DNA of 64,000 nt from Gemmatimonadota bacterium (GCA_046758745.1 JBHIAV010000002.1:32001-96000), one strand, 5' to 3'. Shown: positions 19,906-27,675, counted from the first letter of the stretch. The notes: generated by a model not told the origin, from the letters alone. Numbers and translations: made by a program.

Positions 19906-20239
19906 CTTTCTCTCTCGCAGCCGCTGGGCCGCCGCCTCGGGTAGACCCGGGGAACGCGTTCGACCCTTGCTCCCGGCCGCGGGCTTGGCGGGCGCGCCGG
20001 GCCCGTTCCGCTGCTGCCGCGGCCGATGATAGCCCGTTCGGGAGCGGAGTCAATCGGCCGCCCGGCGGTTCACTTCACCGGATGAGAGCCGCGCGGGTGA
20101 GCGGCGGGACCGGCCGCGCTGCGCGGCGGCTGGCCGAGCAGCAAGACTGATGATAGACGGTTGATCGCCCTCCCGGATGGTGAGGGCAGTGGAGAGGGGG
20201 ATGCGGGTCGGGCGGCGAGGCTTCGCACCGGAAACGCTT

Positions 20240-23200
20240 ATGTACCATCTCCAGAGCTTCGGCGGCGTCGCTCTCACCGGTGGAGATGGCTCCAGCATCC
20301 GACTGCGCTCCCGGAAACACCTCGCGCTACTCCTCTTCCTGGTCGCGAACGGACGACGGGTGCACACGCGCCGCGAGCTCGCCTCGCTCCTGTGGGACAC
20401 TCCCCCCGGACGAGCGCGCCATTCGCTCAGCCAAGCGGTCTATGACCTGCGCTGCCGGCTCGACGGGATCATCCTTGGGTTCCCCGGGGAGGAGGTCCAG
20501 CTCGATTCAGGCCGAATCCGCTACGACGTCGACGAGCTTGAGCGAGCGGTCAAGGAGGGCAACCTCGGTCGAGCCGTTGAGTTGTACCGCGGCCCGTTTG
20601 CCACCAACCTCGACACCACCGGTACGGATGACTTCGAGCGGTGGCTCGAGACCGAGCGAGTGCGCCTCCAGCGGCTCGTTCACCTCTCGCTGCGTCGGTA
20701 CGTGAAGGAGTGCGACGCCCACGCCAAGTGGGGGGAGATGTGCGTGGCCGCTCTCAAGCTGGCCGACATGGATCCGCTGGACGAGGAGGCGCACCGTGCC
20801 CTAATGCGGGGCTTGTGGTTACATGGCGATCGCACCTCGGCCCTGCGCCACTACGAGGAGATCTCCGCCTTTCTGACAAGTGAGCTCCCCGGGGGGATCT
20901 CCAGCGAGACGCGGCAACTGGCCGAGCGGATCCGCCACGAGCCGGCCGAGGGGGCGACCATCGCTACGTCTGCCGCCGAGAACCGGCCGCCCCTCGTCGG
21001 CCGTGGGCAGGAATTCGAGTTCCTCAAGGACGCAGTTAGGGAGCTTCGCCGTGGTCGGGCGGGGACAGTGGTCGTGCAAGGTGAACCGGGGATCGGAAAG
21101 AGCAGGTTGATCCAGGAGTTCGTCCGCTCGGCATGCCTTGAGCCGATCCGCGTGCTTGAAAGCCGCTGCTACGCCGCTGAGAAGGACGTGCCGTACGGCC
21201 CGGTGGTCGATGGCCTGCGTCCGATCGCAGAACAGATGGCACGTACTCTCCCGAACGACGGCTGTCAATACACCCGGCTCGGTCACCTCTTCCAAGAGTT
21301 TGCGTCCTTCATGCAGCCGGAGATCGAGCACGGCGTCGATCCGAATGCCTGGCGCCGTCGACTGTACGAGGAGGTGGCCGATTTGGTGCGGAACGCCTCG
21401 GAGTGGGCACCAATCTTGTGGGTAGTGGAGGACATGCACTGGATGGATGCCACCTCCCGATCCTTACTCCACTACCTGTCACGGAGGTTGGCGGAGCGTC
21501 CCTTCATGCTGGTCATGACAGAGCGCGTCGGCAAGACGCATGTCGCTGTTCGTGCGCAACGGCGCAGACCGCCTCGTCCTGGGGAAACGATGGACCTCGT
21601 GCTGCCGCCGCTCACCGATTCCGAGATCGGGCAGCTCGTCGCCGAGGCTCTGCCCGAGGCGAAAGAGCACCCGGCGGTCGAGCTCGCACAGAAGCTGGCA
21701 GGGGGAAACCCGTTCTACGCGCTCGAGGTATTCCGGGCCGCATTCGCGTCGGCGGAGTGGATCGCCGAGGCCGACACCTGGGATCCCCTCACTGACGCAA
21801 GGTTGAGCGATGTCTTCGACATTCGCTTCCGGAACCTTCCGGACGGATCCCTTAGAATCCTGCGAGCCGTGTCCGTACTCGACCGCCACGCTACCCCCCG
21901 GCATGTCGCGGCCTTGGCCTCCCTGTCGCTGCAAGGAGCTGCCGACGTTTCCACCGAGCTGTACGAGCGCGGTCTTCTGGTTGACGGAGATTCCGAACTG
22001 GATTTCGTCAACGACATTGTGCGGGAGTACGTGTACAAGAGAATGAGCTCCATGCAGCGAGCAGCCCTGCACCTCGCTGCCGCGCAACAGCTCGATGGCG
22101 AGCCAGGAATCGGTGCGGCCACATTGGCCAGACATTACCATCTGGGCGACGACAAGCCGAATACCTTCAAGTGTGGGATGCAAGCCGCGACCGAGGCGAG
22201 CTCGTCGGGTGGCCATCTCGAGGCTGCCTCGATGGCCACTCTCGCTCTGGCTGCAGCGGGCGAGCGGGACGAGACCCTCAGGGCTTTGCGAATCCTGGCG
22301 AGCGCCGAGCTCCTATCAGCACAACTGAAATCGGCGCAGGAGCACTACTCTCGGATTCTCGACCTCGACACCGAGATGTCGCTCGAGGCGAGAATCGAGA
22401 CGAAGCTACACATCGTAGAGACGATGGCGGAACTGTCAGAGTGGGACGGAGGGCGGGAGTTGCTGAGCAGTCTCGCGGATGAGATTGAGAACATCCCTGA
22501 ACCTACGGTACAACTTCGAACCCGTGCGGAGACACTTTTCTGGAGCCTCAAGATTGCAATGCGCCAGAACGACTGTGAAGCCGCACGTGCAATTGCCTTG
22601 TCTGCACGTCGGCTCCGGGACACGGCAGTCACTGAGGGAACAGTCACCCCTGTTGCCGATGTCTCAGCGCTTTGCTGTGTAGCAGCCTACACCGCTTTCT
22701 TTGAAAACGCAGAAGATGCGCTTCAGCTCATTCAACTAGCTGAGAGGCGGATTGGGCTGATACCGGACTACTTGATCGAGAGGGTCCGACTCTTCAGTGG
22801 GATGGTCCGGCTACGGATGGCCCTATGGGATGAGGGGGAGCAGGATATCCTGGCGGCGATCGATCTGGCACGTAAACGTAAGGATCTAGTGCAGCTCAGT
22901 ACCCTATGGAACAACTTGGCTTGCTGCGCTCTCGAACAAGGCGACTGGGATCGTTTCGAAAAGACTGCATCTATGGCAGAATCTATTCAAGAGAAACTAC
23001 CAGTCCAGCTGGACGTTACGCTGCCATTGACGATCAATCGAGCTAACTCTCTCTTCTATCAGGGACATCCGCAGGCCGCAGGCAAGCTCTATAAGACCGC
23101 CCTCGATTCTGCGCTTGGCTTAGGATCTCGAGAGTTCGTACCTGAGCTGATGGCCTGCCGAGGACTGACCGCGCTACAGCTTGGCGATCGCGCAACAGCA

Positions 23201-23566
23201 GAAAAGATGTGGAACGGCGTCAAGGACTTGGACGCCGCGAAACTGGCAGGTGTCCAGGAACGGTTCAAGCTTGAATGGTTTCGGGGATATCACCTAAGGA
23301 ACGAAAGCTCCGCAGAGGCAGGTAGTCGGTTCTTCAAGGCTGCAGAAGAACAGGAGTTTCTCGACGTTCCAAGTTACTTGAAGATGCTGTGGCTCGGGTG
23401 CCTCTTGTTTCCGAAGTTGACTCGAGAGAGCCTGCGAGAAGCTGACCTGTTGGAACGTCTGAGGGCGGCGCGAATGTGGTGGTTCTCGAAGTTTGCCAAA
23501 CGTTGGCTCAGAGCAACGGACTACCACGCACGTCGCCTAAGCCGATTCCGCGGAGCGCGAAGCTAG
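20240..23566 (+). CDS. Large SARP-like transcriptional regulator: wHTH-BTAD, ATPase, TPR
   Basis: ELASLLW...ARHSLSQAVYDLR; DPLDEEAHRALMR (BTAD); LVGRGQE, Walker A GEPGIGKS, Walker B VVEDMHWMD, GGNPFY; helical TPR-like C-terminus. Start uncertain (20177, 20201 or 20240). Confidence 0.88.
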   Translation: MYHLQSFGGVALTGGDGSSIRLRSRKHLALLLFLVANGRRVHTRRELASLLWDTPPGRARHSLSQAVYDLRCRLDGIILGFPGEEVQLDSGRIRYDVDELERAVKEGNLGRAVELYRGPFATNLDTTGTDDFERWLETERVRLQRLVHLSLRRYVKECDAHAKWGEMCVAALKLADMDPLDEEAHRALMRGLWLHGDRTSALRHYEEISAFLTSELPGGISSETRQLAERIRHEPAEGATIATSAAENRPPLVGRGQEFEFLKDAVRELRRGRAGTVVVQGEPGIGKSRLIQEFVRSACLEPIRVLESRCYAAEKDVPYGPVVDGLRPIAEQMARTLPNDGCQYTRLGHLFQEFASFMQPEIEHGVDPNAWRRRLYEEVADLVRNASEWAPILWVVEDMHWMDATSRSLLHYLSRRLAERPFMLVMTERVGKTHVAVRAQRRRPPRPGETMDLVLPPLTDSEIGQLVAEALPEAKEHPAVELAQKLAGGNPFYALEVFRAAFASAEWIAEADTWDPLTDARLSDVFDIRFRNLPDGSLRILRAVSVLDRHATPRHVAALASLSLQGAADVSTELYERGLLVDGDSELDFVNDIVREYVYKRMSSMQRAALHLAAAQQLDGEPGIGAATLARHYHLGDDKPNTFKCGMQAATEASSSGGHLEAASMATLALAAAGERDETLRALRILASAELLSAQLKSAQEHYSRILDLDTEMSLEARIETKLHIVETMAELSEWDGGRELLSSLADEIENIPEPTVQLRTRAETLFWSLKIAMRQNDCEAARAIALSARRLRDTAVTEGTVTPVADVSALCCVAAYTAFFENAEDALQLIQLAERRIGLIPDYLIERVRLFSGMVRLRMALWDEGEQDILAAIDLARKRKDLVQLSTLWNNLACCALEQGDWDRFEKTASMAESIQEKLPVQLDVTLPLTINRANSLFYQGHPQAAGKLYKTALDSALGLGSREFVPELMACRGLTALQLGDRATAEKMWNGVKDLDAAKLAGVQERFKLEWFRGYHLRNESSAEAGSRFFKAAEEQEFLDVPSYLKMLWLGCLLFPKLTRESLREADLLERLRAARMWWFSKFAKRWLRATDYHARRLSRFRGARS

Positions 23567-24871
23567 ACCTCGCTTGGCAGCGAGGGACACTGGCTTGCTC
23601 GGGCCCACTAAGTCCTCAAGGATACCCGTCGCGACAACAACCGCCACGACCTTCGGGTCGAACTGCGTCCCACTGTGCTTCTGCAGTTCCTCGCGAACAA
23701 CCGTCACAGGAAGCGCCTCTCGATAGGGCCGTGCTGTGGTCATGGCGTCGATCGTATCGCAAACCATGATTATCCTTGCTCCGAGCGGTATTTCTTCCCT
23801 CGACAGTCCCGCAGGATAACCCTCCCCGTCGAAACGTTCGTGGTGGTGCCTTACACAGCGAAGTACCTCGCGGTGGATACTACGAATCGACTTGATGATG
23901 TCCACTCCCCGATCGGGGTGAGCGCGGATCAAATCTCGCTGTTCGGGCGTCAGAGGTCCTTTCTGTCGAAGGATCTCGCCATAGGCAACGTCGATCTTGC
24001 CGATATCGTGCAAAAGAGCGGCTGTTTCGATGATCTGTGCATATCGCGGCCTGAGTCTCAGCGCTCTGGCGATCCTGCTGGCTGCCTCCGCAACTCGGAT
24101 GGAATGACCCGACGTGTACGGATCCTGTGCTTCGATAGTCTTCACCATCAAGCGAAGCAGGTCTGTGTTCAACTGCTTCAGCTCGAAATTAATGCCATAG
24201 CTGTAGCGCAGGCCGATTAGCGGGATAATGGCCAGCAGCACGGCAATAGGTCCCCAGCGTGTGAAGGAAACGGCGACGAGATAGGCAAGAGGGCTCATGG
24301 CGATGTCAAAGATGATCAGACCGCCCGTAATATTTCTCCAAGCCTCGCGGTACGTGTGCCCTTCTGTAAGCGACACAACGTATGCGACGGTACCCGTGTT
24401 GACGGCGAAATAGGCTAGTACGGCCATGAGAAAGGGGGGAAACGTCTGACGAAAGTCGATGCTTTCCAGACTCTCGACGCCCCCAAACCACCTAAAAACC
24501 AGACTTGCCGCAGAGACAGCGAGGACGAGCTGGGCGGTATTGAACAGCTTCTTATAAAAAATCTTGTCGCGATAAAGAAGGAATTCCGAGAAAACCTCCG
24601 AGATGAGGGTGACTGTTACGGCACCGGAGGGTCCCAGGAGCAGAACGGCGCCCAGTTCAGGTATGAAGTCCATGGACGTGGTTGAGCCACTCTCTGAGAA
24701 CTTCAAGTATAGCATCATGCTGACGATGCTTAGCGCTAGGAGAGTTGCGAAAGCAACCACAAGATTGCTGGAAGAGGGGAGGGGGTAGCGCCAGAAAATA
24801 AAAGCTGCTGAGAACGCTGCCAGCGTCGCGGCGGCGTAGACTACAACGCGCAGGCGAGTGTCGATGGTCAT
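23537..24871 (-). CDS. Membrane-bound HD-GYP cyclic dinucleotide phosphodiesterase
   Basis: About 6-7 N-terminal TM helices; DPYTSGHS, LHDIGK, HHHERFDGEGYP, DAMTTARPYR all intact. Confidence 0.93.
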   Translation of the reverse strand: MTIDTRLRVVVYAAATLAAFSAAFIFWRYPLPSSSNLVVAFATLLALSIVSMMLYLKFSESGSTTSMDFIPELGAVLLLGPSGAVTVTLISEVFSEFLLYRDKIFYKKLFNTAQLVLAVSAASLVFRWFGGVESLESIDFRQTFPPFLMAVLAYFAVNTGTVAYVVSLTEGHTYREAWRNITGGLIIFDIAMSPLAYLVAVSFTRWGPIAVLLAIIPLIGLRYSYGINFELKQLNTDLLRLMVKTIEAQDPYTSGHSIRVAEAASRIARALRLRPRYAQIIETAALLHDIGKIDVAYGEILRQKGPLTPEQRDLIRAHPDRGVDIIKSIRSIHREVLRCVRHHHERFDGEGYPAGLSREEIPLGARIIMVCDTIDAMTTARPYREALPVTVVREELQKHSGTQFDPKVVAVVVATGILEDLVGPSKPVSLAAKRGLASRSAESA

Positions 24872-24897
24872 CTACTGAGGACCCCCAACCCCTGCTA

Positions 24898-24993
24898 TTA
24901 CCACCTGACCGTTCCACCCCAGCGGACCGTTCCACCCCAGCGGACCGTTCCGCCGAACAACCTGGCAAGCCAGTTGGTGCTGATCAGTAGCAT
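24898..24993 (-). CDS. Unannotated 31-aa peptide MLLISTNWLARLFGGTVRWGGTVRWGGTVRW (putative signalling-peptide precursor)
   Basis: SD AAAGGAGGTG at 25010-25001, 7 nt before the ATG; tandem stops TAA TAG; three 18-bp repeats that differ only at synonymous sites. Confidence 0.85.
   Translation of the reverse strand: MLLISTNWLARLFGGTVRWGGTVRWGGTVRW
24901..24954 (-). repeat. 3 x 18 bp coding repeat (GGTVRW)
   Basis: GGCGGAACGGTCCGCTGG / GGTGGAACGGTCCGCTGG / GGTGGAACGGTCAGGTGG on the minus strand. Confidence 0.95.
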
Positions 24994-25246
24994 CGAAGCT
25001 CACCTCCTTTCGAGTTGAAGACATACCCGTTCGCTACAGGGTATGCTTCGTCTCCGCTCGGAGGTCGCTCCGCTCAGCTCTCGGTGGCGAGCCGCAGAGA
25101 TTGGGGGTTCCTCTGGCTATCGCATCCCGGTCTATAGGTTTATCTGCGGCGCCAAAACGACTAAGCGCGCTGGGCCGCAAGGCTTCCCACAGTCGACCCA
25201 AGAAAGAAAAGCAATTGCAGGCCGCAACGCAACTGGGCGCCGGGGA

Positions 25247-25948
25247 TTACTTGTTCGCTATCCAGCGGTTGGTGGCGTGAAGGCAGGCCAGAACAGCCGC
25301 CTCCTCTGGCGAGTCCTGCACTCTGCCGATCCCGGCCAGGCAGACCGTGGTACGTCTGGCGTGGTCGTGAACGACAACCGCGAGCAGGCGACGTCCCAAA
25401 GCGTCGATCTGACTCACCCCCTCCAAAGAAAGGGAGGTCTTGTCCCCCGTGGCCTTCTGGATCGCCTGCAGAACAGCGTCGCAGGCGACCTCGAGGCGAG
25501 ACTTCGCGTAGTCGGGACCCTCGGCCTCTCCGACGTACTCGGTGTCGCCAGAGCGCAGCTGCACCCGGCAGGAGACCTGCTGACCCGTCTTGCGCTCGAT
25601 GTGGAATCCGTCTAGGAGGAAGCGTCTGGCGCCAGCCTGCGTCTCGGCCTCGGCCTCGGCCTCCGAGACCACGGGGATCTCGGGTCCCTTCAGCCTCGCG
25701 ACAGAGATCTTGCGGTGGTCTATCTGGAGGCCGAACTCCGCGAGGAGGGCCGATTCGATGTTGCGGACGATCTGTTTCGCCGAGAGGTCAGCGACGCTGA
25801 GCACGTGAATCTCATCGATGCCGCCATGCCCATCGGGCACGATCTTCAGGGAGCTCACCCCATCGAGACCCACCAGCAGCTTTTCGATCCGGCGCAAGCC
25901 CCAGGGATCCACGCCCCTTGCCGCCGGCTCTCCGGCCTCTCGGCTCAT
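25247..25948 (-). CDS. Hypothetical protein (EIHVL...KQIVRNIESAL...IDHRKIS; C-terminal part reminiscent of the LeuA allosteric domain)
   Basis: ATG at 25948 overlaps the DGC stop (ATGA). Natural globular composition in two domains joined by an EAEAEAE linker. Confidence 0.75.
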   Translation of the reverse strand: MSREAGEPAARGVDPWGLRRIEKLLVGLDGVSSLKIVPDGHGGIDEIHVLSVADLSAKQIVRNIESALLAEFGLQIDHRKISVARLKGPEIPVVSEAEAEAETQAGARRFLLDGFHIERKTGQQVSCRVQLRSGDTEYVGEAEGPDYAKSRLEVACDAVLQAIQKATGDKTSLSLEGVSQIDALGRRLLAVVVHDHARRTTVCLAGIGRVQDSPEEAAVLACLHATNRWIANK

Positions 25949-27675
25949 CGAACGAGCTTCCCTCCGATCGCGGGGTGTACAGTGTTGCCTCCGTGCGCCT
26001 TGGCAACATAGAGAGAGGCATCCGCCTCCGCCATCAGGGCCTCGCTCGTCAGAACGGACCGCGCCGCCCCTGAATGATAAGCGAGACCAATGCTTAGCGT
26101 AACCCCCGCCTCTCCCTGTGGCGTATGAACCCGGAAGGTCTCTGCCTGAGATCGAATCTCCTCGGCCACCCGCGCGGCGCCCTCGGGGTCGGCGTTTACG
26201 AGGATAAGAACGAACTCGTCGCCTCCGAAGCGACACGCGATGTCGGTGGCCCGGATGGCTCCTCTCAGGATATCGGCGACACCCCGCAGGATGTCGTTGC
26301 CGGCTGCGTGACCGAGCCGATCGTTGATCGGCTTGAAGTCATCCAGGTCGATGAACAAGACGGCGAGGGAGGTACCGCTCCGATTGGCGCGTGCCACCTC
26401 CTGAGCCAAGCGTTCCTCGAGTACCCGATACGTGAAGAGTCCGGTGAGGGCGTCATGCATGGCGTCGCGTGACGCCTGCTCGACCTGACGTCCCAGGTAG
26501 TAAGGGCAGATCGATAGGGTGGCCCGTCCTCGGGAGATGGCATCGGCGAAGTCGACGCACCTCGCGTGGCCGCAGGCCCCGCAATCCCAGTACGCACCGC
26601 CGGGAGCCCTTCCGATTCGCTCGAGCACGCGAGCCGCTTGCGCGGAGTCGGCCGGTGGAAGCGCCGCGGCATTCGGCTCGAAGGAGGCGCTGAGATCCAG
26701 AGCCGGCGGAACATCGACTACGGGCTCCCCGGAACGCCCGCCTTCCGCGAGCTCGGCGATCGCTTTGCGCCAGAAAAGGTCCTCATGCCGCCCGAAGGCG
26801 GGATGATCGAGGCTGCCCTCGAACGGTAGGACGTCGAGGAAGCCGAGTTCGCGTTCGCTGCTGACCACCGCTTGGGCGACGGCGCTCAGGGCGTGCAGGC
26901 CCCGGATCTTGCTGAACCGCCGCGATGAGAGGGACTCCTCCTCAAGCATGGCCAGCGGAAGCCCACCCGCGGTGGAGAGGTGACGGCGCCGCTCCGGCGG
27001 GATGCGCTCGAGCGTGAGGGGCTGCCTCTCCGGGTCCGCGCCCTTGTGGATCAAGAGATCCTTCAGCTCCTCGAAGGAGATGCATGCGCTGATACCCTGT
27101 TCGTCGCGGTCCGGCCCTGGAGTCGCCAGACCAGCGTAGATGATCCTGTATTCTGGCCCGTAATGGGTGCGAAGAAACCGACCGAGGGCAACGGCAGGCG
27201 TGACGATGGGCGCCAGGAAGGGCAGCAGGGCGGGGAGCCTGACTCGGCAGTAGTCGACCACGATGGAGCTGGTGGAGCGGATCCACGTCCTGGGGGAATC
27301 TTCCCGCCACAGGCGCAGATACTCGTGCGCCACCAGCTCATCGCCCAAGGTCTCAAAGTATACGCCGTGAAAGCCCGCCCGGAAGCAGGCGTTGATGATC
27401 TGCTCTGGCGTGGCCGGGTGGAAACTGACGGCCACTTCGGCCGGTAAGATGAGGATCGCCCGGTCCTTCTCGATGGCTTCCCGCACCTCCCGGATGTCAC
27501 CGACGACGTCGATAGCATCGTGGTGGCAGGCCGGAACGCAAAGGCCGCACTCGATGCACGTCTCCCCGACGATCCGCACCTCGTTCCCCGAAACGGCGAT
27601 CGCCTCGACGGGACAGACGCGGACGCAGGCCATGCACGCCGTGCAGTTGTCGTTGACCGAGAAGCTAAGGTTCAC
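25945..27675 (-). CDS. Diguanylate cyclase with 2[4Fe-4S] ferredoxin, degenerate [FeFe]-hydrogenase-like and FeS domains
   Basis: CTACMACVRVCP and CIECGLCVPAC; DCGACGHARC...CPYY; DLDDFKPINDRLGHAAGN; RATD I-site followed by RFGGDEF; ADASLYVAK. Confidence 0.9.
   Translation of the reverse strand: MNLSFSVNDNCTACMACVRVCPVEAIAVSGNEVRIVGETCIECGLCVPACHHDAIDVVGDIREVREAIEKDRAILILPAEVAVSFHPATPEQIINACFRAGFHGVYFETLGDELVAHEYLRLWREDSPRTWIRSTSSIVVDYCRVRLPALLPFLAPIVTPAVALGRFLRTHYGPEYRIIYAGLATPGPDRDEQGISACISFEELKDLLIHKGADPERQPLTLERIPPERRRHLSTAGGLPLAMLEEESLSSRRFSKIRGLHALSAVAQAVVSSERELGFLDVLPFEGSLDHPAFGRHEDLFWRKAIAELAEGGRSGEPVVDVPPALDLSASFEPNAAALPPADSAQAARVLERIGRAPGGAYWDCGACGHARCVDFADAISRGRATLSICPYYLGRQVEQASRDAMHDALTGLFTYRVLEERLAQEVARANRSGTSLAVLFIDLDDFKPINDRLGHAAGNDILRGVADILRGAIRATDIACRFGGDEFVLILVNADPEGAARVAEEIRSQAETFRVHTPQGEAGVTLSIGLAYHSGAARSVLTSEALMAEADASLYVAKAHGGNTVHPAIGGKLVR

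Follow-up and report, generated by a model that had tools for sequence, protein, structure and literature searches.

A predicted micro-gene in a structured leader RNA, conserved upstream of MASE9/HD-GYP phosphodiesterase genes in several bacterial phyla

The 64,000-nt stretch of Gemmatimonadota DNA analyzed here (GCA_046758745.1 JBHIAV010000002.1:32001-96000; hereafter, the window) contains a 31-codon open reading frame (ORF) that, judging from sequence comparisons, is a real, conserved and unannotated micro-gene represented in several phyla. The codon patterns described below indicate that the sequence of the encoded peptide is under selection, and that its three GGTVRW cassettes originated by lineage-specific, in-frame 18-bp tandem duplications of a single ancestral cassette, each kept by selection. 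The micro-gene is embedded in an elaborate, predicted leader RNA immediately upstream of a gene for a membrane-anchored c-di-GMP phosphodiesterase. We favor a joint model, to which we assign about an even chance of being correct, in which translation of the leader micro-gene gates expression of the HD-GYP gene and the released peptide partners the MASE9 sensor of the same enzyme.

The micro-gene (24898..24993) is encoded on the minus strand, running from ATG at 24993 through 31 codons to TAA ending at 24898, with a second stop codon, TAG, at 24897-24895; the assignment is based on ORF translation, the coding signature and the orthologs. The product, MLLISTNWLARLFGGTVRWGGTVRWGGTVRW, consists of a 13-aa N-terminal part, MLLISTNWLARLF, followed by (GGTVRW)x3. 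The Shine-Dalgarno (SD) sequence, AAAGGAGGUG at 25001..25010 on the minus strand, is nearly invariant in 17 leaders, and this element (AAAGGAGGTG at 25010-25001) is located 7 nt upstream of the ATG. Tandem Repeats Finder detected 2.5 copies, 100% identical, with a period of 18 nt (score 90); the third unit differs from these. In the codon view, cassette 1 reads GGC GGA ACG GTC CGC TGG (24937..24954, minus strand), cassette 2 reads GGT GGA ACG GTC CGC TGG (24919..24936, minus strand), and cassette 3, which with its AGG Arg codon is the ancestral-type terminal copy, reads GGT GGA ACG GTC AGG TGG (24901..24918, minus strand). All differences among the three 18-bp units are synonymous by codon comparison. 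Translation and the codon view thus confirm the preliminary description of a hidden 31-aa gene with a strong SD, a TAA TAG double stop and three synonymously differing units. Across the source genome, the cassette-coding pattern is found only in these three units and at one unrelated site.

The source genome is a 3.08-Mb metagenome-assembled genome (MAG) of Gemmatimonadota, comprising 130 contigs and 87% complete. The micro-gene is separated by 26 nt from the start of a gene encoding a 444-aa MASE9 + HD-GYP c-di-GMP phosphodiesterase (23537..24871, minus strand; Pfam HD_5, 7.5e-35, and MASE9, 1.3e-09), and among the named loci matched, those closest to this protein come from Gemmatimonadota MAGs. 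The gene order on this strand is GGDEF cyclase, 233-aa protein, terminator-like site, leader with micro-gene, HD-GYP. The terminator-like hairpin with a T-run (25212..25235, minus strand), identified in a pattern scan by consensus match alone, lies just 3' of the 233-aa gene, and its position after this upstream gene suggests that transcription begins anew at the leader. The GGDEF cyclase (25945-27675, minus strand) is fused to 4Fe-4S/[FeFe]-hydrogenase-like domains, its gene is ATGA-coupled to that of the 233-aa protein (25247-25948, minus strand), and in both of the order's families, the leader is preceded by this gene pair. The 233-aa protein has no Pfam or NCBIfam match and its Atlas neighbors are exclusively hypothetical proteins of Gemmatimonadota, so that a role of this protein as a maturase finds no support. 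A gene for a 1129-aa BTAD/AAA/TPR (SARP-like) regulator (20177-23566, plus strand) converges on the HD-GYP gene, with the 3' ends overlapping by 30 nt. By domain content, the neighbors of the micro-gene therefore include GGDEF, a hypothetical protein, HD-GYP and the BTAD/AAA/TPR regulator; no protease, exporter or maturase domains were detected in the neighboring genes with Pfam and NCBIfam, in agreement with the preliminary description. The stretch is present in four DNA metagenome runs from one study, with no RNA run among those listed.

For analysis of conservation, the best HD-GYP match was taken from each of 40 relatives, and the upstream DNA was inspected for 22. An SD-led short ORF (sORF) is found at the same position in 17 of these 22 orthologous loci, in one case starting with TTG; among the other five, one is truncated, one is cut at the contig start, and three have a different upstream context. 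Examples of the peptides are MGSLWLVLLLGGTVRW, MNFFMLLFGGTLKW and MWALFLAALAGTLRW in the relatives and MAWMLRMLLAIASLFAGNITWG in the sister family. A covariance model of the leader 5' domain, built from 17 sequences, detected one site in the source genome and matched 66 of the 145 genomes of the Gemmatimonadota order, nearly always with one site per genome. In the class sample, 29 of 151 genomes contain a match, 15 being G000 or genomes of the order and 14 belonging to other families; the leaders of these 14 score lower, show the same anatomy and encode peptides that have diverged further, for example, MPGFGWLAFLLGIFARAFSAQGTIMW and MLNAFVDYCCQLVAWAPGVLGW. The HD-GYP ortholog directly follows the leader in 69 of 86 loci, and the remaining 17 all stop at a contig end, that is, the ortholog is present in every locus with enough DNA. 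In the family of the source genome, the distance from the sORF stop to the HD-GYP start is 24-48 nt (except for L050, where the picked HD-GYP start overlaps the sORF). The length of the N-terminal part of the sORF product varies from 8 to 30 residues across the loci. In one genome (G026; loci L019/L068), a natural deletion of ~75 nt removes the C-terminal cassette, the 3' arm of the long-range helix described below together with the T-run, and the annotated HD-GYP start; the close relative L020/L067 is intact.

DNA patterns for the leader recovered 14-56 of the 87 known loci or were too unspecific, and therefore, the HD-GYP protein was searched in public genomes instead. Of the 80 named loci obtained, 26 were inspected, chosen for a match starting early in the protein. 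All 13 free-standing MASE9/HD-GYP loci among these carry the sORF; they belong to Gemmatimonadota, Actinomycetota, Atribacterota and Bacillota, with 9 of the 13 outside Gemmatimonadota. The predicted peptides include MKINKAKIISFLISVMALLLAGGARFRW in Atribacterota, MSKIYKAITVLVTLVLAGGATYRW in Desulfosporosinus and MKKATIMMALLSVLSILATAGAGFTWR in Clostridiales, and further carriers are found in Coriobacteriia, Streptosporangiales and additional Bacillota. The sORF is absent from the other 13 of the 26 inspected loci. Twelve of these have no separate upstream region in the 600-nt flank, the frame being open to the locus start, and in most of them the frame upstream of the match is the end of a GGDEF domain; in L133, the upstream region is free, yet there is no sORF. 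In L124, L127, L129, L157, L163 and L180-L183, from Anaerolineales, Thermoleophilaceae, Gaiellaceae and other Actinomycetota MAGs, the MASE9/HD-GYP frame is open into a GGDEF-like coding end, with no sORF, and the products may be GGDEF fusions. Eight peptides of the family showed no significant Pfam or NCBIfam match (best E values 0.045, to YoaJ, and 0.11, to a RiPP precursor model), and 2 of 10 peptides were found in a collection of 15 billion proteins, one of them labeled 'hypothetical protein'. No published account of the micro-gene/HD-GYP module was found in the main texts of the openly accessible literature covered by our search.

The pattern of substitutions is that of a protein-coding sequence. 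All 69 unique sORFs (69 of 69) are open in the coding frame; of the two alternative frames, one is open in 10 and the other in 28. Among 32 close pairs of the same length, which are not independent of one another, the differences at codon positions 1, 2 and 3 number 57, 37 and 139, respectively, and the ratio of synonymous to nonsynonymous codon differences in these non-independent pairs is 114/61 in frame vs 35/151 and 8/171 in the shifted frames. Codon-position entropy was calculated for 49 unique sORFs anchored on the terminal Trp. At Gly(-4), the values are 0.14/0.14/1.76, with positions 1 and 2 fixed and position 3 free, and at the aliphatic residue (-2), only the second codon position is fixed. 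These observations bear out the inference of selection on the peptide sequence made in the preliminary description, with third codon positions free and residues kept. The consensus of the C-terminal cassette is G-x-T/K-aliphatic-x-W-stop, with a single cassette being the norm. The Trp is the last or next to last residue in 49 of the 56 unique sORFs of the order (50 of 56 with the start of L052 corrected); it is missing in the g16 loci L089, L090, L092 and L095, in L054 and L065, and in several sORFs from other families and phyla. The second Gly of the GG pair is kept in 47 of the 49 sORFs, and the first is not conserved (A 18, G 18, T 7, other 6).

Of the 66 leader-containing genomes of the order, 8, belonging to 6 genera, show cassette duplications, and a DNA-level tandem duplicate is present in 7 of 81 sORFs. 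The six duplicated lineages are the source genome, with three copies of GGTVRW; L057, with a product ending in LFGGTVRWSSFFGGTVRW; three species of genus g20 (TGKILWTGKILW); L081 (TGTIGWITRSGTIGW); L089 (GLIRIGLIRI); and L073 (AGNIFAGNITWG). In 5 of the 6, the copies differ at the DNA level by synonymous changes only; in L089, all five codons differ between the copies and the residues are unchanged. Because the copies diverged only synonymously, peptide-level constraint acts on every cassette copy, including those away from the stop codon. Among the arguments that the peptide, and specifically the cassette, does more than simply being translated, this one is the strongest. The same comparison bears on the initial interpretation of the gene as a double-glycine, multi-core precursor. 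Repeats do recur in relatives, and in six lineages, but most relatives have a single cassette and the first Gly is variable, so that the multi-core double-glycine reading is not supported as stated. The HD-GYP gene and the enclosing RNA helix, neither of which figured in the preliminary description, point instead to a gene-specific control or partner module.

The last cassette seems to be subject to an additional constraint. In 18 of 19 sORFs, the Arg that precedes the terminal Trp is encoded by AGG, although this rare codon accounts for ~6% of the Arg codons in long ORFs of the source genome, whereas the internal cassette copies use CGC or CGT for Arg in three independent lineages (the source genome, L057 and L089). 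Such a preference suggests that this cassette is constrained at the nucleotide level as well, the possibilities being a rare-codon pause or an RNA-level role of AGGUGG at the inner end of the long-range helix. There is also a hint of variation among strains. In two further samples, the contigs are interrupted within the first cassette, at 24947-24976, and in a variant contig, 47 other bases past the break are followed by a perfect complement of the 5' arm of the helix; seven MAG contigs (of G007, G008, G013, G124, G126, G211 and G227) end within the sORF. These observations, made on contigs only, suggest strain-level diversity at the cassette, possibly a hotspot.

RNAalifold analysis of 16 full leaders predicted three structural elements, namely, a long-range helix P1, a CCUCC:SD pairing and a hairpin P3. 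In P1, ACCCCCAAUCUCU on the 5' side pairs with AGAGAUUGGGGGU on the 3' side; in the window, the 5' arm predicted by RNAalifold is GAACCCCCAAUCUCUGC (25094..25110, minus strand), and the 3' arm, identified from the sequence and duplex prediction, is GCAGGGGUUGGGGGU (24881..24895, minus strand). The 3' arm begins at the sORF stop codon or a few nt past it. In the source genome, 10 nt separate the end of the G-run in this arm from the HD-GYP AUG, and no other SD-like element is present at that position. The P1 duplex dG ranges from -28.5 to -46.4 kcal/mol in the 17 loci with both arms (-41.5 in the source genome), the weakest value being that of L019, with the 3' arm deleted; L015 is cut before the 5' arm. 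When the arms were swapped among 67 loci, the mean was -46.1 for cognate pairs vs -33.5 for non-cognate ones, and the cognate pair ranked first in 24 of 67 and fell below the row median in 64 of 67. The P3 hairpin (25017..25049, minus strand; RNAalifold), formed by GAAGCAUACCC and GGGUAUGUCUUC with UAGCGA in the loop, includes two pairs with five double (compensatory) changes each. Covariation supports the prediction that an RNA helix overlaps the ORF end and either masks the downstream ribosome-binding site (RBS) or forms a terminator. The position-conserved, SD-led short ORF 5' of the regulated gene that control by a leader ORF requires is present as well.

The two alternatives for the 3' side of P1 are distributed by family. 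All 12 loci of the sister family (12 of 12) have a T-run after P1, and there the 3' arm together with the T-run looks like a terminator in the predicted fold; in the family of the source genome, there is no T-run after P1, with the exception of L075, and the G-run ends 2-32 nt from the HD-GYP start (7-32 nt save for two g20 loci at 2). The HD-GYP gene of genus g13 is equipped with a separate GAGGG SD that is not part of P1, and hence RBS masking is not uniform. Minimum free energy folds of 10 loci outside the order (9 from other phyla and L121 from Gemmatimonadales) contain an enclosing 5'-3' helix in most cases; these helices are unrelated in sequence, and L122 and L125 are ambiguous. Rfam searches yielded only a chance-level match (E = 8) in 24300-25800 at E <= 10; with a threshold of E <= 1, 9 loci representing 5 phyla gave no match.

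The strand predicted to sequester the SD is itself conserved. The anti-SD CCUCC at 25064-25060, with a predicted CCUCC:GGAGG pairing, is flanked by two blocks of RAGCG pentamer repeats, GAGCUGAGCGGAGCG ... GAGCGGAG (25052..25080, minus strand), identified as invariant alignment columns. Tandem RAGCG pentamers (GAGCGGAGCG, GAGCGAAGCG and UAGCGUAGCG) are located beside the SD-sequestering strand in nearly all phyla (leaders L121-L178), with a conservation range from Gemmatimonadota to Atribacterota and Bacillota, and may be a ligand- or protein-binding element. A TRAP-like protein binding NAG-NN repeats was considered as a candidate and rejected, there being no TrpBP family match in the 87% complete source genome.

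In the joint model, the upstream strand beside the RAGCG repeats would pair with the SD region of the micro-gene, and P1 would connect the leader's 5' terminus with the region that begins at the micro-gene stop codon; in the source genome, the 3' arm of P1 contains the G-rich RBS region, located 10 nt from the HD-GYP start. By translating the micro-gene as far as its stop codon, a ribosome would melt P1, and this would free the HD-GYP start in the source genome and prevent termination in the sister family. Since a ribosome reading to the stop must melt the helix, the enzyme would be made only when the micro-gene is translated, and translation of the micro-gene would in turn be controlled by some input at the sequestered SD. 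The peptide, produced together with the enzyme, would associate with the membrane and serve the MASE9 domain as a partner or ligand. The combination of a hydrophobic N-terminal part with a C-terminal G-x-T/K-aliphatic-x-W cassette suggests that the released peptide probably partners the membrane sensor domain of the HD-GYP protein. In the one published analysis of MASE9 that our search turned up, a preprint, the domain is argued, itself by inference, to bind a ligand within the membrane (10.1101/2021.11.05.467447). The N-terminal part of 13 aa in the source genome and the 14-16-aa peptides of its family are too short to span a bilayer, and resemblance to a single-pass helix is limited to the forms of 21-28 aa found in other phyla. 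Structure prediction for a complex of the MASE9 domain with the peptide, using alignments, gave a score of 0.02, to be set against a mark of 0.32, and in this run, made without controls, speaks neither for nor against the partner role. The gating and partner halves of the model were derived separately because gating needs no conserved peptide and partnering needs no enclosing helix.

An alternative reading is that of a purely cis-acting leader or arrest peptide, in which the C-terminal G-x-T-aliphatic-R/K-W motif would slow termination and hold the ribosome on the P1 3' arm, setting read-through or translation of HD-GYP, with the released peptide being functionless. The conserved motif indeed keeps a distance of 0-1 codon from the stop, whereas the N-terminal part ranges in length from 8 to 30 residues; the P1 3' arm lies immediately next to the stop codon; the rare AGG before the terminal Trp would fit programmed slowing; and there is a precedent in PepNL, a 14-aa peptide reported to stall at its stop codon (PMC11890864). 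Nevertheless, we consider this reading rather unlikely. Internal copies located 6-12 residues from the stop are kept through synonymous divergence in five lineages, which is unexpected if only the last copy matters; the N-terminal part has remained hydrophobic in the different phyla, its beginning being rich in Lys in Bacillota and Atribacterota; and the stop codons (TAA 38, TAG 24, TGA 7) indicate no release-factor specificity. Selection on each duplicated copy, the recurrence of duplication in six lineages and the status of the cassette as the best-conserved part of the peptide would be readily accommodated by a processed signal precursor, in which the N-terminal part serves for export or processing, as in SHP/XIP-type pheromones, and the released cassette is sensed by MASE9, linking a cue to c-di-GMP breakdown. 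The peptides of Bacillota and Atribacterota appear signal peptide-like by eye, with a Lys-rich start, a hydrophobic core and small residues at -3/-1, followed by 5-6 residues. The possibility is doubtful all the same. There is no linked protease, exporter or maturase, and a search of the genome for a C39 peptidase, as proposed in the preliminary description, found the only such domain on a different contig (C18), unlinked to the micro-gene. Furthermore, the GG is not conserved, one cassette is the norm, and cleavage between cassettes would need an additional enzyme not yet recognized. Pheromone genes, moreover, are not known to be enclosed by an RNA helix or to be coupled as tightly to a downstream start as the micro-gene is to that of HD-GYP.

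The architecture of the leader resembles that of hok/AapA1-type mRNAs, which are silent through 5'-3' pairing and SD sequestration, and the locus could accordingly be viewed as encoding a type I toxin-like small hydrophobic peptide, with its SD paired upstream and its mRNA silenced by the long-range helix. This is very improbable, given the single copy per genome, the strictly vertical synteny with one gene across the class and into other phyla, the lack of an evident antisense RNA in the promoter scan, and the short stop-to-start distance to HD-GYP in the family (L050 excepted). Direct repeats located just upstream of a gene can serve as regulator sites, and the 18-bp repeats could similarly be DNA or RNA sites, for example, for binding a regulator, with the ORF being incidental. 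This interpretation is close to refuted by the open frame in all unique sORFs, the conservation of the SD and the start codon, the specificity of the synonymous/nonsynonymous pattern to the coding frame, and the rarity of the repeat, which most relatives lack. Classical attenuation by Trp or Leu codons was considered as well and is not favored: the HD-GYP enzyme is not linked to those pathways, the conserved residues are Gly, Thr, aliphatic and Trp, and there are no runs of a single codon. A more far-reaching version of the partner idea, in which the cassette is a peptide cue released or displayed at the membrane and sensed by the intramembrane MASE9 domain, the number of cassettes (1, 2 or 3) and strain variation tune dose and specificity, and the leader is a new class of regulatory RNA that switches the module on, appears speculative, and we attach little probability to it.

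To our knowledge, no input signals are known for HD-GYP phosphodiesterases with membrane (MASE) sensor domains. A micro-gene fixed beside MASE9/HD-GYP in four phyla is a concrete candidate for the missing input or for control of enzyme expression, and it is surrounded by a covarying leader RNA structure absent from Rfam. The module exemplifies conserved coding capacity that gene callers miss, as the small fraction of the peptides found in the protein collection attests. The recurrent, independent duplications of the cassette amount to a natural experiment that sets 'the peptide matters' against 'only translation matters'. Should the cue reading be true, the locus would represent a self-contained peptide-to-c-di-GMP signaling module distributed over several phyla.

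The micro-gene shares features with several known systems and coincides with none of them. As in double-glycine multi-core RiPP or bacteriocin precursors, the short ORF of the source genome contains repeated C-terminal units; in the present family, however, GG is not conserved, one unit is normal, and there is no linked C39 transporter or maturase. In ermC/cat-type and pyrBI-type systems, translation of a leader ORF melts a helix that masks the RBS or acts as a terminator. The present leader is similar to these in having a short, SD-led ORF and a helix that overlaps the ORF end and the downstream start region or U-run, with the predicted outcome hinging on the ribosome reaching the end of the ORF. 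It differs in that one helix encloses the leader and the ORF, in place of alternative 1:2/2:3/3:4 hairpins, and in that there are no control codons tied to the regulated function and no recognized inducer, whereas the peptide is conserved across phyla. Very short ORFs, key C-terminal residues near the stop and the prominence of Trp are shared with TnaC and with PepNL, which at 14 aa is as long as many members of the present family (PMC11890864). That source describes PepNL as dependent on UGA/RF2 (PMC11890864), whereas all three stop codons are used here; in addition, internal duplicated cassettes are conserved in the present family. With MgrB-PhoQ, SafA-PhoQ and KdpF-KdpABC (PMC3618439 for KdpF), the micro-gene shares the arrangement of a tiny gene for a hydrophobic peptide beside that of a multi-pass membrane sensor, probably co-expressed. 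In contrast to these systems, many members here are only 14-16 aa, too short for a membrane span, such that the likeness to a single-pass helix is confined to the forms of other phyla; moreover, an elaborate leader RNA surrounds the gene. In Clostridioides difficile, 58-aa small membrane proteins, multi-copy and species-specific, are encoded behind class I c-di-GMP riboswitches (PMC13724677). These proteins resemble the present peptides, themselves probably membrane-associated, in being unannotated, located at the membrane, preceded by a structured leader and tied to c-di-GMP (PMC13724677); the module described here differs from them in that its leader matches no Rfam family, it is present once per genome, and its HD-GYP neighbor is constant.
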